Shown here piece after piece: positions 9,838-32,244 of a stretch of DNA of 39,469 bases; the first letter of the stretch is position 1; every line of letters starts with the position of its first letter. The position numbers were made by a program, and so were the translations under genes. The notes beneath the pieces were generated by a model. The model was not told the origin of the DNA. It saw only the letters and a list, made by a program, of their open reading frames with translations, and made no database searches. The stretch is from Thermoplasmata archaeon (GTDB lineage Archaea > Thermoplasmatota > Thermoplasmata > Lutacidiplasmatales > UBA184): NCBI GenBank assembly GCA_028864975.1, contig JAGWLG010000033.1:1-39469 (forward strand), in the 5' to 3' direction.

Positions 9838-12800
9838 CTACGAGCTCGGCGCGGCGGCGGAAAGGTCGTCGACGCGCTTCTTCGCTTCCTGCACGCCTTC
9901 GGCGTTCCCCAGGCTCTCCGCCGCCGAGAGCACCCGTCGGGCGACCTCGAGGGCCCGCTCTCGGTCGCCGTGCTTTTCGAGTAGCTCCGAGTAGGTCTTG
10001 AGCGCGTTCGTGGCCTGCAGGGCCCCCTCGAAGAGACCTTCCCGGTCCATCGCCTCGAACTCCTTCAGCGCACCCGGAAGGTCGCCGGATCGTCCGAGGA
10101 TCTCGGCGCGGAGCCCCCGGCAGTCGCGCACGTCGTCGGGTCGCTCCGTCCGCAGGGCATCCTTGAGCGAGATCTCCGCCCATCGGAGCGCTTCCTCGGT
10201 GTGGTCGCGGCGGAGCTCCACCCGGGCCATGATGAACGAACCGGAACAGGAGATCCTGGGGAGGGCGAACTTCCTACCCACGTCATAGAGGTGGAGTCCC
10301 GCGGGCTCCGCCCTGTCAAGCTCGCCCAAGGCGAGCAGGATCGCGGCCGCGTTGTACTCGTCGATGGCGGCCGCGCTCATCATGCCCGCACGCGAGAAGA
10401 GCTCCGAGGCCTCTTCGGCGTAGCGGGCCGCGAGCCGGGGGTCCCCCGTGTGGGCCGTGACCATCCCGCGCGCGTGGCGGGCTTGCGCGAGGGCCTCCCC
10501 GTCCCCCGCGGCGACGCGGTCGGCCTCCTCGAGCACCTCCCGCGCCCGGTCCGGTCGACCGAGCTGCACCTCCGAATAGACGATATCGGTCAGGGCGCGG
10601 AAGAGTACCTCGTGGTCGACCTCCGCTCGGGGGGCGTTGGCGACCTGCTCGAGGAACTTGAGCGCCTCCGCCCAGCGGGATCGGGTGAAGAGCAGGAACC
10701 CTCGGAGCATGAGGATCCCGTTCGCGAGCCGGGGAGACGGGGGAGGGCGCTCCCCCGCCTCCATCTCCTGGACCAACCGCTCGACGACCGGACGCACCTC
10801 CCCCGCGCCGTACTGGTCGAGGGCTCGGGCCTTGCTGTACTCGACCTCCCACCAGCTCTCGGGGTCGAGGTCCCCGGGGGCGGAGAGCCCTTCGAGGAAG
10901 CGGAAGGCCGCTCGGGCCCCTCCCGCTTTGGCCAAGCGACGTGCCCGCTGGGCCTCCTCCTGCACCTCGGCGGGGGCGGGACGGCGACCGGAGGAGCGGA
11001 GCAGCTCGTGGAGCCACCCCAGGTAGACCCCCGCCGCTTCGGGGGCGAGGCGCGCGGTGGAGAGGTCGAAGGCCCGCCGGACCCACGCCGCGCCCCGCAC
11101 GAGGTCCTGAGCGTCGTGCGCAAGACGGGCAAGCGTCTCCACTTCTTCGGGGCGATGGGCCTCCCACCAGTCGAGTAGCGAGAGGGCTTGTGGACGGAGC
11201 CGCTCCGAGGGGATCTCGGAGCGTACGACCTCCCAGACGAGAGGGTGCGCGAAGGTCCACCCGGCCTCGGGCGAGCCGACAGCCGTGGAGGGCTCCAACA
11301 ACCGCTCCCTCACCTCAAGGTCGTGGACGATCTTTCGCGCCTCCTCTAGGGAGATCCCCCGAACGCTGGCCACTGGCTCGAGCGGGAACTCGCTCCCCGC
11401 GACGGCCGCGACATCGAGGAACGAGCGCAGCTCGGGAGCGAGCTGCGTGAGACGGCGGTGCGTCAGGCGTTGGAGGCTGGTCGGGACACGGTCGATCGGC
11501 CCCGAGCTTACAGTGCCTCGGGCCCACGCGAACCCTTCCGGGGTCGATTCGAACCCCCCCTCGGATCGGATCTGGAGCAGGGTCTCCCGGAGGAAGTAGG
11601 GGTTCCCTTTCGTCCTCCGCAGGAGCGAGGAGAGCTCGGCCCCCTCGCGGACGATCGGCGCGCCAAGGACCTGCGAGGCGAGCTCGTACGCCTCAGGCTC
11701 CTCGAAGGGATGCAGGGGGAGGCGCTGGAGGAGCCCCTCTCCCTCGAGGGCCTCCACACGCTCCCGGACCGAGGTCCCCTCCTCCTCCGACGAGGAGGGC
11801 AGCTCCTCCTCTCGCGCCCCCCCCACGATCACGACCGGTAGGTCGCGGGCATTCCGGCACAGGAACTGCAGGGCGAGGCCAGAGAGGGCATCGATCCAGT
11901 GAAGGTCGTCGACGACGAGCAGGACCGGGGCCCGCTGGGAGAAGGCCTGGAGGAGACCCAAGTATCGCAGCAGGGTCTGGGCCGGAGGCTCCGAAGCTCC
12001 CGGGGCAAGCGGGGAGTCCCCCGCAGGGTCTGAGCTCGAGGGTGACGGTGTGCTCCGGACGACCTCGGAGTCGGATTCGAGAAGGGAGATCTCGCGGCGG
12101 TCGAAGGTGGAGGGACGAACCGCGACCAAGAGGTGTCCGCCCTGCTCTTGGGCCACGTCGCGCAGGAACTGGAGGAGGCGTAGGACCGGGGGAAAGCCGT
12201 TCTGGCTGGTGAGATACTCCAGGCCCTCGAGCGCGACCAGGCTCCCCGGGCGAGTACGGAAGTGGCGGACGATGACCTCCCCCAGGGCGTCCAGGTTCCC
12301 CGGGGAGATGCGGCCCTCGCCCTCGAGGCGGGTGATCCAGACCGAGGCGGCCCCCTCGGGGAGGGCCCTCGAGCGCTCCGCGGCTCCGCTGGGGTTTTCG
12401 CGGGAGACGAGCAGCAACCTCGAAGATGGGGGGAGCTCCCGCAGGGCCTCGCGGAAGCGGAGAGGGCGCTCCTCTTCGAAGAGCAGGCAGGAAGGCCACG
12501 GGGGCGGGGGCAGCCCTCGGGGTCGCGAGGTCGCGTCGGCTTCTCGCTCTTCGACGTGAGAACGGCGGAACACCTGTTGGAAGGCGAAGAAGGGCCCGAC
12601 CGCCTCCTTGAGCCCATTCCCCCAGAGGACCTGGAACCCCTCGCGACGGGCCTCATCTTCCAGGGAGCGGAGGACCCTGGTCTTGCCCATGCCGCCAGGT
12701 CCTACCACGAGCCAGGCCGATCCCTGGCCGCGACGGCCCCGGACGAGCGCGGCCCGAAGCCGCTCGAGCTCCTGCGACCGGCCGACGAGCGCCGATGCGA

Positions 12801-12843
12801 GCGCCGAGGAGGACGCCAAAGGAGGAGTGGAGGGGGGAGACAT
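9838..12843 (-). CDS. STAND-type (AAA_16/MalT-like) ATPase with inserted DUF835-like domain and C-terminal TPR-like repeats (paralog 1)
   Basis: Walker A GPGGMGKT, Walker B LLVVDDLHW, GNPYF, FAHPL motifs; 'LEGLEYLTSQNGF..VLRLLQFLRD' between the Walker motifs; helical repeat C-terminus. Start set at ATG 12843. Confidence 0.85.
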   Translation of the reverse strand: MSPPSTPPLASSSALASALVGRSQELERLRAALVRGRRGQGSAWLVVGPGGMGKTRVLRSLEDEARREGFQVLWGNGLKEAVGPFFAFQQVFRRSHVEEREADATSRPRGLPPPPWPSCLLFEEERPLRFREALRELPPSSRLLLVSRENPSGAAERSRALPEGAASVWITRLEGEGRISPGNLDALGEVIVRHFRTRPGSLVALEGLEYLTSQNGFPPVLRLLQFLRDVAQEQGGHLLVAVRPSTFDRREISLLESDSEVVRSTPSPSSSDPAGDSPLAPGASEPPAQTLLRYLGLLQAFSQRAPVLLVVDDLHWIDALSGLALQFLCRNARDLPVVIVGGAREEELPSSSEEEGTSVRERVEALEGEGLLQRLPLHPFEEPEAYELASQVLGAPIVREGAELSSLLRRTKGNPYFLRETLLQIRSEGGFESTPEGFAWARGTVSSGPIDRVPTSLQRLTHRRLTQLAPELRSFLDVAAVAGSEFPLEPVASVRGISLEEARKIVHDLEVRERLLEPSTAVGSPEAGWTFAHPLVWEVVRSEIPSERLRPQALSLLDWWEAHRPEEVETLARLAHDAQDLVRGAAWVRRAFDLSTARLAPEAAGVYLGWLHELLRSSGRRPAPAEVQEEAQRARRLAKAGGARAAFRFLEGLSAPGDLDPESWWEVEYSKARALDQYGAGEVRPVVERLVQEMEAGERPPPSPRLANGILMLRGFLLFTRSRWAEALKFLEQVANAPRAEVDHEVLFRALTDIVYSEVQLGRPDRAREVLEEADRVAAGDGEALAQARHARGMVTAHTGDPRLAARYAEEASELFSRAGMMSAAAIDEYNAAAILLALGELDRAEPAGLHLYDVGRKFALPRISCSGSFIMARVELRRDHTEEALRWAEISLKDALRTERPDDVRDCRGLRAEILGRSGDLPGALKEFEAMDREGLFEGALQATNALKTYSELLEKHGDRERALEVARRVLSAAESLGNAEGVQEAKKRVDDLSAAAPSS
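12149..12179. repeat. 31-bp exact inverted copy of 20332..20362 (DUF835 core of the two STAND paralogs)
   Basis: TGGGCCACGTCGCGCAGGAACTGGAGGAGGC is the reverse complement of GCCTCCTCCAGTTCCTGCGCGACGTGGCCCA. Confidence 0.85.
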
Positions 12844-12992
12844 GAGCCGGCTCCGGGGGAGGGAAGTAGGGCCCCCCCACCATGTACGTAGCGGAAGGCC
12901 CAAGGGGCTCGCCCCACGTCGCCCCGTACGACCCGAAGAAGGCCCCGGGCGCCGTCTCCGCAGGTCGAGCGCCCTCCCCCCTCCGCGAGGTC

Positions 12993-13000
12993 TTTTATAA
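12993..13000 (+). promoter_or_regulatory. TATA box for hppA (possibly bidirectional)
   Basis: TTTTATAA in a GC-rich intergenic region, 40 nt upstream of the hppA start. Confidence 0.7.
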
Positions 13001-13039
13001 GGGGGTCCGTCCGCCCCGCGAGCAACGGGGGAATCGTCT

Positions 13040-15154
13040 TTGAACACCCAGACCACCGCCGAGATCCTCGTCGTAGTCTCTGCCATCCTTGCCCTGGGCT
13101 ACGCCGGGCTGCGCTCGATGTGGGTCCTGCGAGCGAAGGACGGGGACGAGAAGATGCGTTCCATCTCGGCCGCCGTCCGCGAGGGGGCCGAGGCCTTCCT
13201 TGTACGTGAGTACCGGACCGTGGCCATCGTAGGGGCGGTCCTGGCGGTCCTGATCGCCGGTGGGCTCTACACCCCCAAGGACCCGGCGTTCAGTCTCCAT
13301 CTTGCCCTCGGGTTCGTCGTGGGGGCCGCGGGGAGCGCCCTCGCGGGGTACGTAGGGATGTACGTGTCCGTTCGGGCGAACGTCCGGACCGCGGAGGTGG
13401 CCAAGGGCGGGAAGCTCGACCCCGCTATGCGCTTCGCCTTCCACGCGGGGTCGGTGACCGGGCTCTCGGTGGCCGGGTTCGCCCTGCTTGGGCTCATCGG
13501 GTTCTACGTCGGCTTCGGCGGGAACATCGACGAGATGGTCGGGTTCATCTTCGGGGCCTCGCTGATGAGCCTCTTCGCGAGGGTCGGGGGCGGGATCTAC
13601 ACCAAGGGGGCGGACGTTGGGGCCGACCTCGTGGGGAAGGTCGAGGCCGGGATCCCCGAGGACGACCCCCGCAATCCCGCGGTCATCGCGGACAACGTGG
13701 GGGACAACGTCGGGGATTGCGCCGGCATGGCGGCGGACCTGTTCGAGACCTACGTCGTGACGGCGGTCTCCACGATGCTCCTCGCCTACCTGTTCGACAC
13801 GACGTTGCCCTCGTTCAAGATCACACTTCCGAACGCGGTCATCTTCCCGCTGGTCATCGGGGCCTGGGCAATCGTGGCGACGATCATCGGGTTCCCCTTC
13901 GTGCGCCTCTCCGAAGGGAACACGAAGATCATGAGCGCGCTCTACAAGGGCATGTTCGCCACCACGGGGGCGGGCATCGTCGGCCTTGCGGGGCTCTCGT
14001 ACTGGCTGATGGGCTCCGAATGGGTCCCGGTCTTCGTCGCGAGCACGATGGGGCTCATCGTGATGGTCGTGATCATCTTCTCGACGGACTTCTACACGGG
14101 GACCTATCGCCCGGTGAAGTCGATCGCCAAGGCTGCCGAGAGCGGCCCTGGGCCCGTCGTCATCGAAGGGATGGCGGTGGGGCTGGAGTCGACGCTCATC
14201 CCGGCGGTGAGCATCATCGCGGGGACGCTCGTCGCCTTCGGGGTCATGGTCCTTGCGAACCCCGGGCCGAACTGGGCCCAGTTCGGGCTCTACGGCATCG
14301 GGCTCGCGGCCGCGAGCATGCTCTCCGCGACCGGGATGATCATCTCCATCGACGCGTTCGGTCCGATCACGGACAATGCAGGAGGGATCGCCGAGATGGC
14401 GAACCTTCCCAAAGAGGCCCGGGAGATCACTGACCCTCTCGACGCCGTAGGGAACACCACCAAGGCCGTCACCAAGGGGTACGCGGTGGGCTCGGCGGCG
14501 CTCGCTGCCTTGGTCCTCTTCGCGGCCTACACCCAGGCGGGGGCCGCCCTCGACCCCTCGATCTTCAGCGGGAGTGCGTTGGCGATCTACAGCCCCCAGG
14601 TGGTCGTGGGTCTCATCATCGGCGCGACCCTGCCGTTCTTCTTCACCGCGTTCCTCATGCGCGCCGTGGGGACGGCCGCGCAGGCGGTGGTCCAGGAGGT
14701 CCGGCGCCAGTTCCGCGAGATCAAGGGGATCATGGAGGGGACGGGGAAGCCCGAGTACGGGAAGTGCGTCGACCTCGTCACCAAGACCGCGCTCCACGAG
14801 CTGATGCCTCCCGCGGTCATCGGGGTCGTGACCCCCATCCTGGTGGGCATGTTGCTAGGCCCCGTCGCCCTGGGCGGGCTCTTGATCGGCGTCATCCTCT
14901 CCGGCCTCCCGCTCGCCATCTTCATGACCACGGGAGGCGGCGCCTGGGACAATGGGAAGAAGTACATCGAGCTCCAGGGACGCAAGAAGACCGACGCGCA
15001 CAGAGCGGCGGTCGTGGGCGACACCGTCGGGGACGCGACCAAGGACACGGCCGGGCCGGCGATCAACCCGCTCATCAAGGTGGTCAACACGATCTCGATC
15101 CTGTTCATCACGGTCATCGTGCAGTACAATCTGCCGCACCTGCTCGGTTACTGA
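13040..15154 (+). CDS. hppA: Membrane-bound H+-translocating pyrophosphatase, K+-independent type
   Basis: [68 protein letters not shown] and GDTVGD motifs; many transmembrane segments; TTG start. Confidence 0.97.
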
Positions 15155-15343
15155 GGGGCCAGTCCCTCCCCCGCGGGGGATCGCTCGCCCACCCTGTCTC
15201 GCGAGAAGGACCTTCTCGTGCACGGCGGCCCCCCCGACCCCAGGGGGCCGACTGGAGTCGGGGTCGGAACCTTCGAGCCCCTCACGGAGCAGAGCTCCTC
15301 TGGGCGCCTGGAGACGGGTCCCCCTCCGCGTTCGAAGCTGAGC

Positions 15344-15742
15344 TCACTCCTCTTGCATCAGGAGGATCTCGTTCCCATCGGGGTCGCGGATCATCGCGTC
15401 CCAGACCCCCCAGGGCTGTTTCGTCGGTTCGTGGACGAACTCCACGCCGCGCTCCTTCAACTTCGCGCACTCGGTCTTCAGGTCGCCGTCCACCATCACG
15501 AGGATTCCCGTGTTCCCGGGCTCGAGAGGGAGACCTCCGATCTCCGACCCGAGGCAGAGATGGATGGCACCGCCACGACCCTTCCGACCCACGGTGACCC
15601 AGTGTCCCCCCTCCTCTTGGAGAACGGAGAACCCGAGCTTGTCGGTGTACCACTTCTTCGATCTCTCTCGGTCCGCGACCATCACGGCCACGCTCGCCAT
15701 CCACGGTCCCATCGACCCTGTCGGTCCCTTCTTTGGCGGCAT
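15344..15742 (-). CDS. VOC/glyoxalase-family protein
   Basis: 'VMVADRERSKKWYTDKLGF' and 'PTKQPWG..AMIRDPDGNEILL'. Confidence 0.9.
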   Translation of the reverse strand: MPPKKGPTGSMGPWMASVAVMVADRERSKKWYTDKLGFSVLQEEGGHWVTVGRKGRGGAIHLCLGSEIGGLPLEPGNTGILVMVDGDLKTECAKLKERGVEFVHEPTKQPWGVWDAMIRDPDGNEILLMQEE

Positions 15743-15835
15743 CCTCTTCGCGCTCCTCGGGTGGGGCCCGGAATTCTCCCTCGTTCTTGAAGATGGGGAG
15801 GAGGGCGCGGTCGGTCCGTCTCGGGACCGCCGTGC

Positions 15836-16501
15836 CTACGCTCCACCCGGAGGTCGGAGTTCCCCAGGAGGAGGTCCGCCCGAGTATCCGGCCAGTCCCG
15901 CGCCGCTCGAGGACGGCGGGGGTGGAGGTGCAGGGGGAGGGGGCGCGCCCGGCACCGCCGCCAGGGTCCCGGCAGCTATGGGGGCCTTCCCGCCGAAGCC
16001 TGCGGCCCGTGCGCCGGCCTTCTTCGGCTTGGCGAGGATCCCTCCGACGAGGGCCAGGACGCCCAGGACCGCGAACAGCGCCCCCACGAACCCCCCGAAC
16101 AGGGGGCCGTTGTAGGTCACGTCGAGCACTGTGCTCCCGCTCGCGTAGACCTCGTAGCCGGTTCCCGCCTTCCCGCTGAAGAGGAGGTCGAAGCTCTGCT
16201 GGTTCCCTCCGCTGCCCTGCGCGACGAGGTTCGAGGCGGTCTTGTACTGGCTCCCCGCCGAACAGGAGGTGTCCGAACCACACGAGTAGACCTGGACCGA
16301 GACCGAGGTGGTCGACCAGGCGTTGACGTCGAAGGTGAGGGCCCCCGGGGTGTAGGCGGGCTCGAAGAAGACGTAAGGGGCCGTGGACGGGGAGATGGTC
16401 TCGACCCCGACCGATTGACCATTGAACGGAACGAAAAGGAAGACCGCTCCGATGATCAGGAAGGCGATGCCGGCGCCCACGGCCTGGGGTCGCATACGCA
16501 T
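15836..16501 (-). CDS. Hypothetical membrane protein: two hydrophobic segments flanking an S/T/G/Y-rich extracellular beta domain, Pro-rich tail
   Basis: Hydrophobic N-terminus (AVGAGIAFLIIGAVFLFV), second TM (GGFVGALFAVLGVLALVGGILA), PPPPAPPPPP tail. Start 16501 or 16495. Confidence 0.7.
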   Translation of the reverse strand: MRMRPQAVGAGIAFLIIGAVFLFVPFNGQSVGVETISPSTAPYVFFEPAYTPGALTFDVNAWSTTSVSVQVYSCGSDTSCSAGSQYKTASNLVAQGSGGNQQSFDLLFSGKAGTGYEVYASGSTVLDVTYNGPLFGGFVGALFAVLGVLALVGGILAKPKKAGARAAGFGGKAPIAAGTLAAVPGAPPPPAPPPPPSSSGAGLAGYSGGPPPGELRPPGGA

Positions 16502-16604
16502 TCGGGAGGCGTGAGACCATGTCAATCCTTCGGACCTTAACGGTCTGGGAACGCCGAGCCGGAACGGAGCCTTCTTAGCCAGCGCCCGTGTCCAATCCCT
16601 CTCG

Positions 16605-17798
16605 ATGGAGCTCACGCGCGACGAGGAGGCCATCCTGCGGGGCGAGAAGGGACCCCGCCAGCAGGAATGCATGCGCATCCTTGCGACCCTGGGGGAGATG
16701 TACGGGGCGCGGAAGCTCCTCCCCGTCTACTCGGTCCAGCTCTCCGGGATCTCCTACAAGACCATGGGCTCCGCGGGGACCGAGTTCCTGGAGGAGATGG
16801 CCGAAGGCGGGGCCAAGTTCGCGGTCCGGACCACGATCAACCCCGCGGGGTACGACGTCGGAGGACCGGGTCTCGTCCGGACCCACGAGGACTTCCGGGC
16901 GAAGCAGGACCGTCTAGTGAAGGCCCTGATGACCCTCGGGGCGACCCCCACGTTCACCTGCACCCCCTACACGACCGAGTTCGCGCCGCCTCCGGGGGCG
17001 CACCTCGCCTGGGCCGAGAGCTCGGCGGTGATCTATGCGAACAGCGTCATCGGGGCGTTCTCCAATCGCGAAGGGGCTCCCAGCGCCCTCGCCAGCGCCG
17101 TCCTGGGAAAGACCCCGGACTACGGTCTTCACCGCCCGGAGGGGCGGAGGGCCCAGGTCGTGGTCGACGTGGACCTCTCCAAGGGGCCCATGCGCTACAC
17201 GGTGGTCGGCGCGTACCTGGGGAAGATCCTGGGGCAGCGTATCCCCTACTTCCGCGGGTTCCGTCCGCTACCCGATGTGGACGCGATGAAGGAGCTCGGA
17301 AGCAGCCTCTCCGCATGGGGCGCCGTGCCGATGATGCACGTGGAAGGGGTGACCCCGGAGGCCGGGAAACAGGACCTCGAAGGGCTCGAGCACCTCTCAG
17401 TGGACGCGCAGATCGTCGGGGAGTTCCAGAAGTGCCTGGGGTGCGACGAGAGCCCGAACCTGGTCGCCATCGGTTGTCCGCACTGCACGAAAGGCGAGCT
17501 CATCCAGATCGCCCAGGCGGTGAAGCAGAAGGGGCGGAGGTTGAAGCCGGGGACGGAGCTCTGGGTCTGTTCGAACCGTAAGGTGATCCAGGAGAACGCC
17601 GCGGCGATCCAGGTCCTCCGTCAGGCGGGCGCGAAGGTCATCCAGGACACCTGCATGGTCGTGGCCCCGCTCTCAGAGCAGTTCCCGGTGGCCGCTGTGA
17701 ACTCGGCAAAGGCCTCGTTCTACATGAACAAGAAAGCGTTCTCGGGGCAGAAGATCGTCTTCGACACGACCGAGAACTTGGTCGAGAAGTACCTCTGA
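16605..17798 (+). CDS. Aconitase X catalytic (large) subunit; probable phosphomevalonate dehydratase large subunit
   Basis: 'MELTRDEEAIL.GE.G', TCTPY, WAESSAV, NREGAPSALA, GCPH and DTCMVV motifs; three cluster cysteines present. Confidence 0.88.
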   Translation: MELTRDEEAILRGEKGPRQQECMRILATLGEMYGARKLLPVYSVQLSGISYKTMGSAGTEFLEEMAEGGAKFAVRTTINPAGYDVGGPGLVRTHEDFRAKQDRLVKALMTLGATPTFTCTPYTTEFAPPPGAHLAWAESSAVIYANSVIGAFSNREGAPSALASAVLGKTPDYGLHRPEGRRAQVVVDVDLSKGPMRYTVVGAYLGKILGQRIPYFRGFRPLPDVDAMKELGSSLSAWGAVPMMHVEGVTPEAGKQDLEGLEHLSVDAQIVGEFQKCLGCDESPNLVAIGCPHCTKGELIQIAQAVKQKGRRLKPGTELWVCSNRKVIQENAAAIQVLRQAGAKVIQDTCMVVAPLSEQFPVAAVNSAKASFYMNKKAFSGQKIVFDTTENLVEKYL

Positions 17799-17860
17799 GG
17801 CCCCTTCCGCCGCCCTTCGTGGTTTAGATATACACGAACCCGCCGTTCCGCGCCGGGGCT

Positions 17861-18598
17861 ATGATCAAGGCGGTGGTCTTCGACCGCGGCGGGACCCTCA
17901 TCCGCGAGCGCAGCGGTGAGGAGGTCCTCTACGAGATCCTGAACCCCATGGGTTTCCACCTCACCCCGGTGCTCCTGAACAAGGCGGAGGAAGCCTCACG
18001 AGCTCACTGGCGGGAGAAGTACCAGTCCCTCCCCCGTGGCCAGCGGTGGACCCACGAGATCCGACGCGACTGCCTCGAAGAGGCCCTCAAGACCCTCGCC
18101 CTGCCAGGGGACGAGGAGACCCAGCAGGACCTGCTGCGCCGGTTGGACGAGTACTGGGACGCCTTCCGCATCCTCGGTCTCTACGCCGGCGTCCGTCCCT
18201 GCCTGGGGGCCCTGGCAGCGGAGCGGATCCCGTTGGGGGTGCTCGGGCAGACGCTCCGCAGCTCGATCGAGGTCCGAGCGGAGCTGGAGCGTCTGGGGGT
18301 CGGGCGATACTTCCGGACCGTGGTCTCGGTCGAGGACACGGAGTGGGACAAGCCCGATCCTCGGTTGTTCAAGCTCGTCGCCGAGAAGTTGGGTCTCCCT
18401 TCCGGGGAGGTCCTCTTCGTCGGGGACGACTACGAGCGGGACGCTGGCGGGGCCAGGGCCGCGGGCATGGTCCCGTTGATCGTCGACCGTCACGACGCGG
18501 TCCACGTCAATGACGTGACGGTCGTGAGGTCCCTGGCCCAGATCCCGGGGGTCCTTCCGTCCTTGAGCAAGGGCCCTACGCAAAGCGTCAGTCCCTGA
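17861..18598 (+). CDS. HAD-superfamily hydrolase
   Basis: Motif I variant VVFDRGGTL, KPDPRLF, FVGDDYERD; TTTAGATATA at 17823-17832. Confidence 0.88.
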   Translation: MIKAVVFDRGGTLIRERSGEEVLYEILNPMGFHLTPVLLNKAEEASRAHWREKYQSLPRGQRWTHEIRRDCLEEALKTLALPGDEETQQDLLRRLDEYWDAFRILGLYAGVRPCLGALAAERIPLGVLGQTLRSSIEVRAELERLGVGRYFRTVVSVEDTEWDKPDPRLFKLVAEKLGLPSGEVLFVGDDYERDAGGARAAGMVPLIVDRHDAVHVNDVTVVRSLAQIPGVLPSLSKGPTQSVSP

Positions 18599-18635
18599 AC
18601 AACGTGTTTAAGTCGCCTGTCCCGTCCATCGAAAC

Positions 18636-19580
18636 GTGCGAAGGCTGATCGTCCACGGGGGAGCCGGACGCATCGCCCCCGAGCACGGCGCCGAGGCCCT
18701 GGAGGGGCTCTCCGGGGCCCTCGAGGCGGGATGGGGCGAGATCGACGACGCGACGGAGGCCGCGGTGGCCGCGGTCCGATGGATGGAGGATTCCGGGAAG
18801 TTCAACTGCGGACGCGGGGCGGTCCTCAACCTGCAGGGCCGGGCAGAGCTCGACGCCGCCCTCATGACGGGGCGGCAGCAAGCCGGGGCCGTCTCGAACT
18901 TGACCTACACTCCAAAGGCCATTGCCGTGGCCCGGAAGGTGATGGAAGAGACGCCCCACGTGCTGCTCTGCGGACGGGGGGCGGACCGTTTCGCGAAGGC
19001 CATGGGGTTCCCCCGGGAGACCATCGGCACTTCCGCCCGTCGAAAGCTCTACCGCGAACTACGCAGCGACCTGGTGAACGGGCGGGGGGGGCACGGACGA
19101 TGGTCGGACCGCAAGCCCTCGCGCCATCCGGCCTGGTGGGAGCCGCTGAAGCGGCTGGTCCACGTCCACCCGGAGCTCCTGCACGGCACGGTGGGCGCCG
19201 TGGCCGTCGACGCACGGGGTCGGATCGCGGCCGCGACCTCGACGGGCGGCATCTTCCTGAAGATGGAGGGAAGGGTCTCGGACAGCTCTCTCGTGGGATG
19301 CGGGACCTACGCGGACCGCGACGTGGGCCTCTCCGCGACGGGGATCGGGGAGGTCATCATCCGCTACACGCTGACCCGTTCCATCGCCGAGCTCTATCAC
19401 CTGCGCCACGAAGGGGTCCAGGCCGCCGCCGACCGGGCGCTGGCGACCCTTCCCCGCGACGCCGTGGGGGTCATCGCCCTGGACCGGAAGGGGCGGTTCG
19501 CGGTGGCCAAGAACACGAAGAACTTGGCGTGGGCGACGCGGTCCGACGGGGAGCGCTCGGTCCGGCAGGGCCTCTCCTGA
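18636..19580 (+). CDS. Isoaspartyl peptidase/L-asparaginase (Ntn hydrolase)
   Basis: IVHGGAG, FNCGRG, ELDAALM, HGTVGAVA (Thr nucleophile), ATSTGG, GRVSDS; TTTAAG at 18607-18612. Confidence 0.92.
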   Translation: MRRLIVHGGAGRIAPEHGAEALEGLSGALEAGWGEIDDATEAAVAAVRWMEDSGKFNCGRGAVLNLQGRAELDAALMTGRQQAGAVSNLTYTPKAIAVARKVMEETPHVLLCGRGADRFAKAMGFPRETIGTSARRKLYRELRSDLVNGRGGHGRWSDRKPSRHPAWWEPLKRLVHVHPELLHGTVGAVAVDARGRIAAATSTGGIFLKMEGRVSDSSLVGCGTYADRDVGLSATGIGEVIIRYTLTRSIAELYHLRHEGVQAAADRALATLPRDAVGVIALDRKGRFAVAKNTKNLAWATRSDGERSVRQGLS

Positions 19581-19658
19581 ACTGGTGCGGTAGGGTGGCG
19601 GAGCTAGGGCGGTTGACTCCCACGCAGGTCTATCAACCACGCGGGATGAACGCTCGTC

Positions 19659-22600
19659 GTGCGCGCGCAGGGACCCGCGTGGAGCCCCCGAGCCGCTTCG
19701 GAGCTCCCATTCGTCGGCCGGACCTCCGAGCGGGAGGTCCTCTCAGGGGCGCTGAAGGAGGTCGCGCGAGGGCGGGGGGCCTGCTGGATCGTCGAGGGCC
19801 CGGGAGGGATCGGCAAGACGCGCCTCGCACGGTGGGCCGAGGAGCTCGCGGAGCGCGAAGGGTTCCGGGTGCGTCGGGGTTCCTGTCTCGAGGAATCCCT
19901 CGACCCTTTCTTTCCATGGGCCCAGGTATTCCGCAGGTCGAAGGCCCGAAGGACACCTCTGACCTCGGCGGGAACGAAGGGTCCGTCGGAGGAAGCGTCG
20001 GACCGCCCTCCGACAGTCCGCGTGTGGACCGAGGAAGGCTCGGCCACAGGGCCCCTCCGTTCCGAGCTTGCGGGGTGGTCAGGGACTTCTCCTACGCTCC
20101 TCGTGACCCGAGACCGCCCCTCGACGCTCCGTGAGCGGCTGCCCCAGCTTTCCTCGAGCGCCACGGTGCTCTGGCTCTCCCGAGTGGAGGGGCCGGATTC
20201 CGTGCTCCCGGGGCGGCTTGACGAGCTGGGCGAGCGGTTGGAGAAGCACTTCCGTTCGGAGGAGGGAAGTATCGTGGCCATCGAAGGTCTCGAGTACCTG
20301 TCGAGCCAGAACGGCTTCGGGCCGGTCCTGAGCCTCCTCCAGTTCCTGCGCGACGTGGCCCAGGAGACCGGGGGGCACCTCCTCCTCTCGATGCGCCCGG
20401 CGGCGTTCGAGCCCCGTGAAGCGGCCCTTCTCTCGACCCTCGACGACGGCGCCGGAGGGAACCTTGGCCGAGGTGTCCAGGGGGAGGGGAGCGCCAGTAC
20501 CTCGATCGAGATCCGGGTCGGGGACCCGCCCTCGCTCGTGTGGATGCGGCTCCTGGACGCGCTGGAGAAAGAGGCCGAAGGGAGCCCGGTGATGATTTCC
20601 CTGGACGACCTGCAGTGGGCGGATCCCGCCTCGGTCCGGGCGGTGCAGTTCCTCGTACGCAACCTGCGCGAAAGCCCCGTGCTCCTCCTGGCGACACTGA
20701 GGACCGATCTGCGGGGACCCGTGGAGGGGCGGGAGGTCCCGGTCGTCGAGGAGGTCCTCTCGGCCATGGAGCGCGAGGGGCTGCTCAGGCGCCTCCATCT
20801 TCAGGGGGTCGATGCGCTGGCGACGGAGCAGCTCCTCGAGGCCTTCTTCGAAGAGCCTCTCGCGACGCCGGGGGTCTTGGACGAGCTCCTTCAACGCACG
20901 GCCGGCAATCCGTACTTCGTCCTTTCCAGCGCGCGGATGCTCTTCGAGGAGGGACGGGTCACGCGGGAGGAGGGCCGCTCGGTGGTCCGTTGGGTCCCCG
21001 GGGAGGACCTACGGGTGCCTGAGGACCTTCGCCGAACGGTCGAGCGCCGTCTCGCACGCCTCGGCCCGCAGGAACGTGAGGTGCTGGAGAGGGCCGCGAT
21101 CCTGGGTCAGGAGTTCGACCCCGCTCCCGTCGCCGCCACACGTGGCGGGACGGAGGGGGAGCTCTTCGCCTTGATGGAGCGGCTCGGCCGAGACGGGGGG
21201 TTCCTGCGGAGAGTGCGGGGGGGCGACGGGCGCTGGAGCTTCGACCATCCTCTCACCTGCGCCATCGTCCGGGCGAACTCGCCCCAGGAGACCACCCGGG
21301 AGCGGGCGAAGCAGCTTGCGGGGTGGTGGGCGGCCCACCTACCGGAGGAGGTGGAGCATCTCGCCCGGCTCTACCATGCGGCGTCCTCTCCCCTGGAGGG
21401 GCTGCCGTGGGTTCGCCGCGCGATCGAGCAGGCGGTCCGCGCTCGGGACGCCGAGCGGGTCGAGCTCATGGAGAGGTGGCTCCAGGACCTGCTCCAGGTG
21501 TCAGGGGCGCCGAAGGAGACCTGCACCGAGGAGGGGTGCCGCGTCCTCCGCTCGCTTCTCGATGGGGTGGGGCCGGGTGTTCCCACCGCCGAGCGCATGG
21601 CGGAAGGGCTGGTCCTCGAGGGCGTGCCGGGGAAGGCCCTGAGGAAGGCCGAGATCCTTCGGCTCCGCGTCCTGGCGAGCCGACGACCGGACCGGGCCCT
21701 CGAGGAGCTCGCCCGCATCGGAGCGGAGGTCGCGAAGGACCCCGAGGCGCTCCCCGAGGGGTACCGGGGGGCGTTCGCTGCCGCGCACGTGCGGCTCCTC
21801 ACGGACCACTTGCACCGGGAGGAGGAGGCGATCGGGGTCATCGACGCGACGCTCGCGGTGCTCCCTCCCGGGACGGAGGGGGAGGAGCGGGAGTACCTTC
21901 AGGTGACCAAGGCGTGGTGCCTCGGCGAGATGGGGCGATTCCAGGAGGCCGAGGCGGCGCTCGGCGCGATGGGCCCCCTCCCGTCCCACGGACCGTACAC
22001 CCGGAGCGATGGCCGCCGGATAGGGACCTCGGCGCGCCTCGACACGCTCCTCGACCGCTATCGTGAGGCCTCCGAGCTCTATCGTCGGTCCGCCGAGGCC
22101 TTCCGGGAGACCGGAGACGTCTCGAACCTGAGCACGTCGCTCTACAATGTCGCGAGCGCCCTGTCGATGGCGGGGGAGCTTTCGGGGGCCGAGCGCGCGC
22201 TCGAGGAGCTGGGGGCCCTCGCGAAGAAGTTCGACCTTAGAGTTCGGGGAGCCACCTCGGTGCTCCTCGCGGCCGAGGTGCACGGGCGCCGCACGGGAGA
22301 TTGGGAGGGTGCGGGTCGCCTCGTGGAGGAGGCGAGGGAACAGGCCCAACGCGCGGGATATGCCGCGCTCGCCCCCTACTGCGACGCGCTCGGGGCGTCG
22401 GCCCTGCTCCACTGCGGGAAACCGAAGGAGGCGTTCGAGCTCCTGGAGCGGATCGGGGACGGCCGCGCGACGAACCTGCCTCGCGAGCTCCAGGTCGCTG
22501 TCCACATCGTGCGGGCGCAGGCGAATGAAGCCCTCGGGAACGCGACAGGGTCTCTGGAGGAACTTCGACGCCTTCGAGCCCTGGAGGAAGGGCCCGGCGC

Positions 22601-22769
22601 CTCACGTCTGGGGCGCGCCCGGGTCGCTTCGCTCTGCGCCCAGTGGGAGGAGCGGCATGGCGAGGCGGTAAGGGCCGATGAGGAATGGAAGGTGGCTAGG
22701 ACCCTATTCGAGGAGTGCCAGCTCTCGCAGGAGGCCCGGGCGTTCTACAGTTGGTGGCCCTCGGGTTGA
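19659..22769 (+). CDS. STAND-type ATPase with inserted DUF835-like domain and TPR-like C-terminus (paralog 2)
   Basis: FVGRTSE, Walker A GPGGIGKT, 'IEGLEYLSSQNGFGPVLSLLQFLRD', Walker B ISLDDLQWAD, GNPYF, FDHPL; helical repeats. Confidence 0.85.
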   Translation: MRAQGPAWSPRAASELPFVGRTSEREVLSGALKEVARGRGACWIVEGPGGIGKTRLARWAEELAEREGFRVRRGSCLEESLDPFFPWAQVFRRSKARRTPLTSAGTKGPSEEASDRPPTVRVWTEEGSATGPLRSELAGWSGTSPTLLVTRDRPSTLRERLPQLSSSATVLWLSRVEGPDSVLPGRLDELGERLEKHFRSEEGSIVAIEGLEYLSSQNGFGPVLSLLQFLRDVAQETGGHLLLSMRPAAFEPREAALLSTLDDGAGGNLGRGVQGEGSASTSIEIRVGDPPSLVWMRLLDALEKEAEGSPVMISLDDLQWADPASVRAVQFLVRNLRESPVLLLATLRTDLRGPVEGREVPVVEEVLSAMEREGLLRRLHLQGVDALATEQLLEAFFEEPLATPGVLDELLQRTAGNPYFVLSSARMLFEEGRVTREEGRSVVRWVPGEDLRVPEDLRRTVERRLARLGPQEREVLERAAILGQEFDPAPVAATRGGTEGELFALMERLGRDGGFLRRVRGGDGRWSFDHPLTCAIVRANSPQETTRERAKQLAGWWAAHLPEEVEHLARLYHAASSPLEGLPWVRRAIEQAVRARDAERVELMERWLQDLLQVSGAPKETCTEEGCRVLRSLLDGVGPGVPTAERMAEGLVLEGVPGKALRKAEILRLRVLASRRPDRALEELARIGAEVAKDPEALPEGYRGAFAAAHVRLLTDHLHREEEAIGVIDATLAVLPPGTEGEEREYLQVTKAWCLGEMGRFQEAEAALGAMGPLPSHGPYTRSDGRRIGTSARLDTLLDRYREASELYRRSAEAFRETGDVSNLSTSLYNVASALSMAGELSGAERALEELGALAKKFDLRVRGATSVLLAAEVHGRRTGDWEGAGRLVEEAREQAQRAGYAALAPYCDALGASALLHCGKPKEAFELLERIGDGRATNLPRELQVAVHIVRAQANEALGNATGSLEELRRLRALEEGPGASRLGRARVASLCAQWEERHGEAVRADEEWKVARTLFEECQLSQEARAFYSWWPSG

Positions 22770-30963: not shown

Positions 30964-32153
30964 CCCTCCCTTCGTCCTCCACCTCCGCCCCTTCGACCCC
31001 ACGACCCCCCGCGCGCTCCGGGGGCCCGCTCAACCCGGGGCGGGTGTGGGCCGACTTCGTCGTCTACGCCCGCTCCTACATGCGAAGTCCAGAGGCGGTC
31101 TTCTTCACGCTCCTCTTCCCGTTCATCTTGGTCCTGATGTTCGGGGCCATCTTCTCCGGCTCCACCGCTCCCTCTTCGGTCCCGCTCTACGTCCAGAACC
31201 AGGACAGCACCAACGCCACCACGCTGGCCTTCTACCACGCTCTCTCCGAGACCGGCCTCGTGACCCTCCACAACGTCTCCGCGAGCGTTGGGAACATGAG
31301 CCTCTACATGTCCCAGCACTCGTACTCGAACGGACTGGTGATCCCTCCAGGGTTCGGGGAAGAGGTCTGGAACCTGACCAAGGGCCATCAGTCGGGGGCT
31401 CCGGTCCCGGTTCGGATCTACATCAATCCGTTCGATCAGACCTCCGCGGGCATCGTGGAGCAGGCCGTGCAGCTCGCGTTGACCCACTTCAACCAACAGG
31501 GCCCCCCCGTCGCCTACGCCCTGCCTCCTAGCGCCGTGAGCTCTCAGAGCTTCCAGCCGAAGACCATCGACTACGAGGTGCCGGGGCTGATCGGGTTCGC
31601 GATCCTGATGAACCCGATGTTCGCCATGGTGAACGTCACGGCCGAGTACAAGAAAGAGAAGCTGTTCAAGGCCCTCTCGTTGACGCCGCTCACCAAAGGG
31701 GAGTGGCTGCTCTCGAAGATCCTGTGGAACTGGGCCATGACCTTCCTCTCGGCGGCGATCCTCTTCGCGACCGGGGTGGCGGTCTACGGAGCCCACGTCA
31801 TCGTCGGGCCCCTCATCCTTCCCTTCCTGATCCTGGGACCGCTCTTCTTCGCTTCGCTAGGCATGCTCATCGGGACGCTCTCGAAGAAGGCCGAGACCGC
31901 GGGGATCATCGGGAACTTGTTCGCCTTCCCGATGATGTTCCTCTCGGGGGCCTTCATCCCGGTCTCGGTGATGCCCGGGTGGCTCCAGCCCTACGCCCGG
32001 GTCTGGCCGCTGTACTATGTCATCGACGGGATCCAGGCGGTGAGCGTCTTCTCGAACACGGCCCAGGCCCTTTTCGACCTTGCCTTGATCACGATCATGG
32101 CCGCGTTGAGCTTCGTCGCGGCCGTGCTGCTCTTCCGCTGGCGGGAGGAGTGA
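30960..32153 (+). CDS. ABC-2 type transporter permease
   Basis: 'FFTLLFP', extracellular loop, 'DYEVPGLIG', 'PMMFLSGAFIP' and six C-terminal TMs; ATGA overlap with the ATPase. Confidence 0.9.
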   Translation: MTLPSSSTSAPSTPRPPARSGGPLNPGRVWADFVVYARSYMRSPEAVFFTLLFPFILVLMFGAIFSGSTAPSSVPLYVQNQDSTNATTLAFYHALSETGLVTLHNVSASVGNMSLYMSQHSYSNGLVIPPGFGEEVWNLTKGHQSGAPVPVRIYINPFDQTSAGIVEQAVQLALTHFNQQGPPVAYALPPSAVSSQSFQPKTIDYEVPGLIGFAILMNPMFAMVNVTAEYKKEKLFKALSLTPLTKGEWLLSKILWNWAMTFLSAAILFATGVAVYGAHVIVGPLILPFLILGPLFFASLGMLIGTLSKKAETAGIIGNLFAFPMMFLSGAFIPVSVMPGWLQPYARVWPLYYVIDGIQAVSVFSNTAQALFDLALITIMAALSFVAAVLLFRWREE

Positions 32154-32244
32154 GAGGATCTCCGCTCGGAGCGGCCCGAACCGCTCGGCGCCGAAGGGCG
32201 CCCCTGCGATCTCGCACATCGACCCCGACGCGTTCCGCGGCCTC

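Follow-up and report, generated by a model that had tools for sequence, protein, structure and literature searches.

The stretch of DNA analysed here, referred to throughout as the window, is an entire contig of 39,469 nucleotides (39.5 kb; contig C10) from a 3.61-Mb genome assembly of a Thermoplasmata archaeon (about 90% complete, roughly 70% GC). [quoted passage not shown] STAND switches, including MalT, Apaf-1, the nucleotide-binding leucine-rich repeat receptors (NLRs), and Avs, almost always signal via a terminal domain, whereas the module that would serve as output in these two proteins is a folded, catalytically dead ATPase-like domain located within an ATPase domain, on the surface by which related switches are kept closed. 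Based on sequence, structural models, and analogy, it is moderately probable that these proteins are soluble, single-chain cytoplasmic signalling switches of the MalT/PH0952 branch that utilize the nested, dead KaiC-type domain as their output.

Domain order and fold of the nested domain

The two long open reading frames (ORFs) were found at the outer coordinates given in a preliminary description of this DNA, with the longest ORF of P0001 and its translation at 9838..13086 on the reverse strand and P0002 at 19659..22769 on the forward strand (1036 aa from a GTG start, with Pfam matches to AAA_16, DUF835, and TPR_12 and an AlphaFold2 model). The start of P0001 is probably M82 of its long ORF, corresponding to a protein of 1001 aa at 9838..12843 (-), because the database form of this protein (P0039) is 1001 aa in length and starts at the same methionine (position 12843). 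The first 81 codons of the long ORF (13087-12844, -), which are Arg/Pro/Gly-rich and missing in P0039, are probably not translated and would represent an ORF extension of the kind typical of high-GC DNA rather than an N-terminal domain. P0001 and P0002 share 38% identity over 656 aa (E 6e-106) but can hardly be aligned in their C-terminal arrays. The named relatives of the window's proteins come from metagenome-assembled genomes of "Thermoplasmata archaeon" and "Candidatus Thermoplasmatota archaeon".

In both proteins, the match to AAA_16 (E 3.6e-18 in P0001 and 2.4e-16 in P0002) is split in two stretches around DUF835. The presence of DUF835 inside AAA_16, proposed in the preliminary description from the letters alone, holds at the level of profile comparison, with Pfam DUF835 (PF05763; gathering cut-off 33.1 bits) matching aa 220-338 of P0001 (E 4.6e-25, 88.4 bits) and aa 143-259 of P0002 (E 7.9e-24, 84.4 bits), both above the cut-off; a search of the whole genome for DUF835 places the P0001 match at 12073-12438. 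The nested domain as a whole extends over aa 197-339 of the P0001 long ORF (12070..12498, -; delimited by PF05763 and our own hidden Markov model (HMM)) and aa 116-262 of P0002 (20004..20444, +; delimited by PF05763, the insert model, and its fold matches). The shared motif from which the insert had originally been recognized, EGLEYLxSQNGFxPVLxLLQFLRDVAQExGGHLL, is present at aa 296-330 of P0001 and aa 209-243 of P0002.

Upstream of the insert, Walker A reads GPGGMGKT in P0001 (aa 129-136 of the long ORF; 12679..12702, -) and GPGGIGKT in P0002 (aa 47-54; 19797..19820, +), and downstream the Walker B strand reads VLLVVDD (aa 388-394; 11905..11925, -) and VMISLDD (aa 311-317; 20589..20609, +, with a strand at 311-316 in the model), respectively. 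Across an alignment of 42 family members, G50, G52, and K53 of Walker A and D317 of Walker B (P0002 numbering) are invariant, D316 is conserved in at least 90% of the sequences, and W320 and D322 are conserved beside Walker B; the GxP motif (G416-N417-P418) is invariant or near-invariant and the F-x-H-P-L motif of the winged helix is conserved. Walker A, Walker B, GxP (as GNP), F-x-H-P-L, and TPR-like repeats were thus found in both proteins, as initially described, and given the conservation of the four motifs the ATPase core looks functional, as judged from sequence.

The C-terminal half of the P0002 NBD, the helical domain (HD; with GNP at aa 416-418), and the winged-helix domain (WHD; with FDHPL) together occupy aa 288-560 (20520..21338, +), as assigned from alignment invariants, secondary structure, and our own HMM. 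The TPR-like sensor array that follows (aa 561-1036; 21339..22766, +) is identified by Pfam TPR_12, by all-helical hairpin repeats in the model, and by sequence and profile matches in the Protein Data Bank (PDB) to TPR proteins, the MalT sensor (1HZ4), PH0952, and AfsR; the array of P0001 (9859..11154, -) is matched by Pfam TPR_12, TPR_2, and TPR_MalT and by a segment of our own HMM. Pfam searches of P0001 and P0002 returned no helix-turn-helix (HTH), LuxR, cyclase, or other effector family at E <= 1, in agreement with the preliminary description, and an NCBIfam search of the proteins returned nothing specific. The ends of P0002 leave no terminal effector, with Walker A beginning at aa 47 and the TPR array reaching the C-terminus.

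A full-length AlphaFold2 model of P0002, generated from the family alignment (mean predicted local distance difference test score (pLDDT), 88.2; predicted template modelling score (pTM), 0.78), places beta1 (41-47), the P-loop, alpha1, beta2 (70-75), and a short helix (85-90) ahead of the insert region, which consists of a disordered linker (95-114), a five-stranded alpha/beta domain (120-260), and a second disordered linker (265-278). The chain then continues with a helix (291-308), the Walker B strand (311-316), the remaining NBD, the helical domain, a beta-hairpin, the winged helix, and helical hairpin repeats that extend to the C-terminus. The best Foldseek match of this model is PH0952 (6MFV; E 3.7e-10), followed by Avs3, MalT, SAMD9, CED-4, and Apaf-1, consistent with the STAND-TPR identity first assigned to the pair.

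The insert alone, modelled from 54 sequences, reaches a pLDDT of 93.9, and its top Foldseek match is ArlH/FlaH (4YDS; TM 0.69), with which it is aligned by VIA-align over 149 aa at Z 14.1 and 3.2 Å. Other fold matches include RecA (Z 12.8) and KaiC (Z 12.2), with RecA, PH0284, KaiC, and Sso2452 spanning Z 11.8-12.8, and the inactive RecA-fold proteins Elp456 and Psy3-Csm2 are also among the matches. In sequence, the insert can be aligned over its full length with the DUF835 domains that stand at the C-terminus of other proteins from the same genome, and in the alignment of inserts and DUF835 domains it has no P-loop (the consensus EEERPxR stands in its place) and no conserved Walker B Asp. Because both of these features are missing, the insert is, by its sequence and modelled fold, a catalytically dead KaiC/RecA-fold domain, matching the 'iKaiC' label of DUF835; the RecA/KaiC-like, P-loop-less character that had been ascribed to it is borne out by the fold matches and the alignment.

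A relative without the insert (P0044), which is 42-48% identical on both flanks, does not have the segment corresponding to about aa 100-290 of P0002. The topology of the model suggests insertion into the loop that connects the initiator-specific motif (ISM) helix of STAND/AAA+ initiator-type NBDs, which follows beta2, to H2 ahead of Walker B, an assignment at the level of topology made from the order of secondary structure elements and the published description (PMC6468293). A PDB sequence search with the profile of NBD plus insert gave P-loop-level matches only. As ISMb is where two gain-of-function mutations of MalT, M96T and H102Y, are located (PMC6468293), a site at the ISM helix would, by analogy, leave the insert hanging from an NBD surface that takes part in autoinhibition. 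The linkers around the insert in the STAND paralogs are 12-29 aa in length and rich in G, P, S, and E. The nested inserts carry their own signature (EYLxSQNxF...LLQFLRD), and R151, Y213, Q217 (invariant), F220, and Q228, conserved only in nested inserts, are located on the helix pair following the fourth strand.

Paralogs, distribution, and history of the nested form

The genome contains 28 DUF835 matches, divided between 14 STAND-type proteins and 14 proteins with a C-terminal DUF835 only. The STAND-type paralogs, in which about 250 aa separate Walker A from Walker B, are dispersed solo genes, and a comparison of their neighbourhoods found no gene family that recurs within 6 kb of the 14 genes. 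Due to this absence of a shared neighbour family, a multi-gene 'system' around the STAND-DUF835 genes was rejected as a candidate. Within the window, genes for an H+-pyrophosphatase, a glyoxalase, an aconitase X, a HAD hydrolase, and an asparaginase separate P0001 from P0002, and oxidoreductases, an ABC-2 transporter, and a geranylgeranyl reductase lie outside their span; given these intervening and flanking housekeeping genes, the 12.9-kb span represents two separate genes and no single locus. The preliminary description had taken the pair to define a STAND-DUF835 signalling or immune system. A two-gene system at this position is not supported, as both genes belong to a set of 14 copies that arose by lineage-specific expansion.

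Amongst the 14 paralogs, mean pairwise identity is 50% in the N-terminal part of the NBD, 43% in the insert, 39% in the C-terminal part of the NBD plus the WHD, and 25% in the TPR array. The divergence of the insert follows that of the backbone (Mantel r 0.44, p 0.004).

Outside the nested STANDs, DUF835 is always C-terminal, both in this genome and across the class, and often follows transmembrane (TM)-like segments or Kelch/PKD ectodomains. Two of the 14 C-terminal-only proteins in the genome are Kelch plus PKD receptors, and most of the others possess TM-like hydrophobic segments upstream of the domain. The two receptors are giant proteins of 1152 and 1429 aa (L022, C115:27458-30916, and L023, C124:32278-36567) that combine a Kelch beta-propeller, PKD/Ig domains, and TM-like segments with a C-terminal DUF835. 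Comparable ORFs of 1200-1450 aa that end in DUF835 are common across the class; those from other families were considered as nested forms and rejected, as their DUF835 is C-terminal and they have no Walker A.

The distribution of the nested form was determined in four censuses with a profile covering the NBD plus the insert (alignment A2). Across 201 genomes of the class, full-span matches were limited to the window's own family, and the other families match the DUF835 part only (157 of 201 genomes). Within the family, 10 of 121 genomes possess the nested form, comprising all four genomes of the window's own genus (g1; 14 copies in the genome of the window, G000, and 4-6 in the others), all five genomes of genus g3 (3-7 copies), and one of the eight genomes of genus g4 (1 copy). 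None of the 91 genomes of genus g2 possesses it, nor was it found in genera g5, g6, and g78. DUF835 itself occurs in 117 of the 121 family genomes, and those in which no nested form was detected carry only 1-2 copies. Two unpublished genomes from g2 (G098 and G235) are part of the family counts, each with two DUF835 matches and no nested form, and no conclusion rests on them.

In a sample of 401 genomes from the phylum, full-span matches occurred in two genomes of other classes (G378 and G422) and a partial match in a third (G406), and these genomes are 3.6-4.0 Mb in size. An exhaustive HMM search of 1.84 billion representative sequences returned about 60 full-span clusters (50% identity) of the core family, and a more distant nested group was confirmed with Pfam (P0162, P0163, P0181, P0182, P0189, P0206, P0218, and P0194). 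In the databases, no named member bears a more specific annotation than "DUF835 domain-containing protein" or "TPR repeat protein". The nested layout is confined to a few Thermoplasmatota genera. A further AAA_16-TPR relative, P0227 (953 aa), has about 208 aa between the halves of its NBD at the same site as the DUF835 insert; this stretch matches neither Pfam DUF835 nor our own insert HMM and may represent either DUF835 in a highly diverged form or another kind of nested domain.

The genome also encodes about nine close AAA_16-TPR paralogs without the insert. Several of the insert-less proteins, from this genome and from the database, possess an effector at one end of the chain, including a C-terminal winged HTH (wHTH) in L113 and L115 (MarR_2/HTH_Crp_2; 23-26 bits, just below cut-off), in P0192 (PadR/MarR; 27.1 bits, at cut-off), and in P0186 (TrmB-like), an N-terminal wHTH in L117, and an N-terminal adenylate/guanylate cyclase domain in P0165 (E 5.8e-19). 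None of the ~40 nested proteins carries a wHTH or cyclase domain, and in this STAND family the nested DUF835 and terminal wHTH/cyclase effectors are mutually exclusive.

In trees of the backbone alone, computed after removal of the insert columns, nested and insert-less proteins are interleaved. The insert-less P0165 and P0173 group with the nested P0006 and P0007 (100% support in the Shimodaira-Hasegawa-like approximate likelihood ratio test (SH-aLRT)), with P0165 as sister to them; the insert-less L114, P0188, and P0202 group with the nested P0018, P0023, and P0028 (100% SH-aLRT), and the distant nested group branches beneath the entire core clade. Forcing all of the nested proteins into one clade costs 403 log-likelihood units in an approximately unbiased (AU) test (p-AU 5e-57). 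Given that all inserts occupy the same site and have diverged together with their backbones, the most economical history suggested by these sequences would be an old insertion followed by repeated precise losses, some of them in lineages that have a terminal effector instead.

Repeated loss that leaves the host protein intact is also what would be seen if a surface loop of the NBD tolerated the insert as a domain with no functional effect. This explanation is hardly credible, as the insert is more conserved amongst the 14 paralogs than the WHD and TPR parts, possesses family-specific invariant residues, has been kept in the approximately 60 clusters and in the distant second clade, and folds in the model with a pLDDT of 94.

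Signalling role of the nested domain

As an output module, the nested domain would operate within a switch that resembles those of PH0952 and MalT. In the resting, ADP-bound state, the TPR sensor and the arm would keep the nucleotide-binding oligomerization domain (NOD) closed, as in these two proteins, and the binding of a paralog-specific ligand to the TPR array would open the NOD, with ATP replacing ADP and a head-to-tail multimer being formed. Multimerization would uncover and cluster the nested DUF835 domains, which would serve as the output in place of the terminal wHTH or cyclase of the sister proteins. The clustered domains could then feed the same downstream pathway as the membrane-receptor-DUF835 proteins and the response regulators with a receiver domain (REC-DUF835), plausibly a network of KaiC-like ATPases, which are candidate partners. 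Inactive RecA-fold proteins, such as the Rad51 paralogs and Elp456 (both represented among the fold matches of the insert), generally act by packing against other RecA-fold subunits.

The preliminary description had left the insert as either the output or the input of the signal, and it is the output half that gains comparative support, from the wHTH and cyclase domains of the sister proteins and from the C-terminal position of DUF835 elsewhere. The copy numbers favour the same role, with 14 nested copies in the 3.6-Mb genome and 1-7 in relatives of 1.9-3.0 Mb, a pattern of signalling-type scaling.

Several observations weigh against an output role for the insert. By analogy with PH0952 and MalT, an insertion site at the sensor-facing tip of the NBD would fit a regulatory latch equally well. 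A number of relatives (L114, P0044, P0164, P0167, and P0169) have neither the insert nor a detectable effector, so that a STAND can apparently do without an effector, in which case the insert would not have to be the output. The wHTH matches of the sister proteins are mostly at or slightly below the Pfam cut-off (23-27 bits). Further, the backbone trees come from quick searches with SH-aLRT support only, and the clade used in the AU test was named after the tree was seen.

It is possible, though rather unlikely, that the nested DUF835 is instead a regulatory input or latch at the NBD's tip that gates the opening of the NOD, either by holding the switch shut or by receiving a second signal (from a KaiC-like ATPase, a receptor DUF835 domain, or a small ligand), in which case the output would be the STAND oligomer or the TPR scaffold itself. 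Its location between the ISM helix and H2, in the autoinhibitory NBD-sensor interface of PH0952/MalT where the gain-of-function mutations occur, would suit such a role, the five residues conserved only in nested inserts could form an intramolecular interface, and the relatives with neither insert nor effector indicate that an output domain may be dispensable. A latch is harder to reconcile with the transmitter position of DUF835 in all other architectures, downstream of sensor or receiver domains, with its mutual exclusivity with wHTH and cyclase effectors in the STAND family, and with the two long disordered linkers, which suggest a freely tethered domain and no rigid latch.

The proposed connection between the output domain and KaiC-like ATPases draws on the content of the genome, which possesses at least 13 KaiC-like (PF06745) loci elsewhere than the insert. 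Of the 28 DUF835 genes, 4 have a KaiC-like gene no more than 5 kb away, against a mean of 0.97 for random placement (p about 0.014, with windows chosen post hoc), an enrichment that provides a weak hint of a KaiC link. The members of these four neighbour pairs are 0.5-4.6 kb apart (C28:1683-3716 and C28:4280-4969; C65:7869-8147 and C65:8650-12498; C59:86366-87640 and 90179-90790; C119:25905-26951 and 31591-32244), and one of the pairs involves a STAND-type paralog. An extension of the output role, which is speculative and on balance unlikely, would make DUF835 an archaeal homotypic adaptor analogous to the CARD, TIR, or death domains of eukaryotic NLRs, with STAND multimers nucleating mixed RecA-type assemblies together with receptor DUF835 tails and active KaiC-like ATPases. 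If this were true, the STAND and 'KaiC hub' signalling networks of archaea would be physically joined.

At one end of the contig, positions 1-6000 of the window have a GC content of about 0.59, compared to about 0.70 in the remainder. This low-GC stretch encodes a methyl-directed restriction endonuclease resembling DpnI (615-1388, +; PF06044, E 1.5e-51, with DpnI_C as a further match), a Hypoth_Ymh protein (1465-2439, -; PF09509, E 8e-29), and a Fic/DOC protein (4674-5573, -; E 1.8e-23), and is probably a horizontally acquired defence or mobile islet. Between the islet and the high-GC backbone is a 398-aa protein (5860-7056, -) in which two winged-helix regions of the AsnC/HTH_24 type, and no ligand domain, were recognised.

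The preliminary description had also raised an immune role. In one such reading, the paralogs would form an NLR/Avs-like receptor repertoire, with variable TPRs recognising virus proteins and clustered DUF835 domains triggering defence. The many paralogs, whose signalling half is conserved and whose sensor is hypervariable (25% identity), the rank of Avs3 as second-best fold match, and the low-GC islet with DpnI, Hypoth_Ymh, and Fic proteins about 4 kb from P0001 are all compatible with such a repertoire. It nevertheless appears very unlikely. PADLOC returned only a BrxD match for P0002, over the P-loop region (E 3.6e-6), and no match for P0001; amongst the 14 paralogs there is no recurrent defence neighbour, or any shared neighbour at all, and the genes flanking P0001 and P0002 are housekeeping genes. 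The closest relatives and sister proteins are STANDs of the transcription-factor and cyclase types, and DUF835 does not have the catalytic motifs to serve as a toxic effector.

Close relatives that possess the insert, a DNA-binding domain, a cyclase, or nothing constitute a natural experiment, and because the relatives carry alternative modules, the role of the insert, and of DUF835/iKaiC, is testable by module swapping. The nested layout also suggests a route by which cytoplasmic STAND sensors could enter the proposed KaiC-based signalling network of archaea.

Comparison with known systems

A full-text literature search on DUF835, iKaiC, and STAND-KaiC, with the 2017 KaiC-hub paper outside it, found no functional description of the nested layout, as the preliminary description had supposed. 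Its further claim that DUF835 is uncharacterised does not wholly hold for the domain as a concept, since Galperin, Makarova, Wolf, and Koonin (2018, PMC5847659) list DUF835 under the name 'iKaiC' as an output domain in archaeal response regulators of the REC-DUF835 and REC-PAS-PAS-DUF835 types. The nested insert shares with the DUF835/iKaiC of these response regulators the same Pfam family and the same P-loop-less KaiC/RecA fold. Elsewhere, DUF835 is C-terminal, after a receiver, PAS, or membrane/ectodomain sensor, whereas in the window's proteins a P-loop domain of a different kind encloses it and its sequence bears a distinct signature.

The closest solved folds to the insert are those of ArlH/FlaH and the stand-alone archaeal KaiC-like ATPases (PDB 4YDS, 4WIA, 2DR3, and 2W0M; Z 11.8-14.1 over about 145-150 aligned residues). 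These proteins keep Walker A and Walker B and bind ATP, while the insert has neither motif, is about 80 aa shorter, and is 10-14% identical to them. Amongst antiviral STANDs, the Avs/NLR-like proteins (Avs3, PDB 8DGC) share the STAND core and the TPR sensor, with Avs3 as the second-best fold match, but Avs proteins possess N-terminal nuclease or other effectors and the window's proteins have no such effector and no PADLOC match to Avs.

With PH0952 (Pyrococcus horikoshii, PDB 6MFV) and MalT, the window's proteins share the NBD-HD-WHD-arm-TPR order, the Walker A, Walker B, and GxP motifs, and the His motifs of the WHD, and by analogy they presumably operate by the same doubly autoinhibited ADP/ATP switch (PMC6468293). 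They differ from both in having no terminal effector and in possessing a RecA-fold domain of ~145 aa inside the NBD. The host is a MalT/PH0952-type STAND in every tested feature but the terminal effector, and the insert is DUF835/iKaiC in sequence and fold, though not in position.

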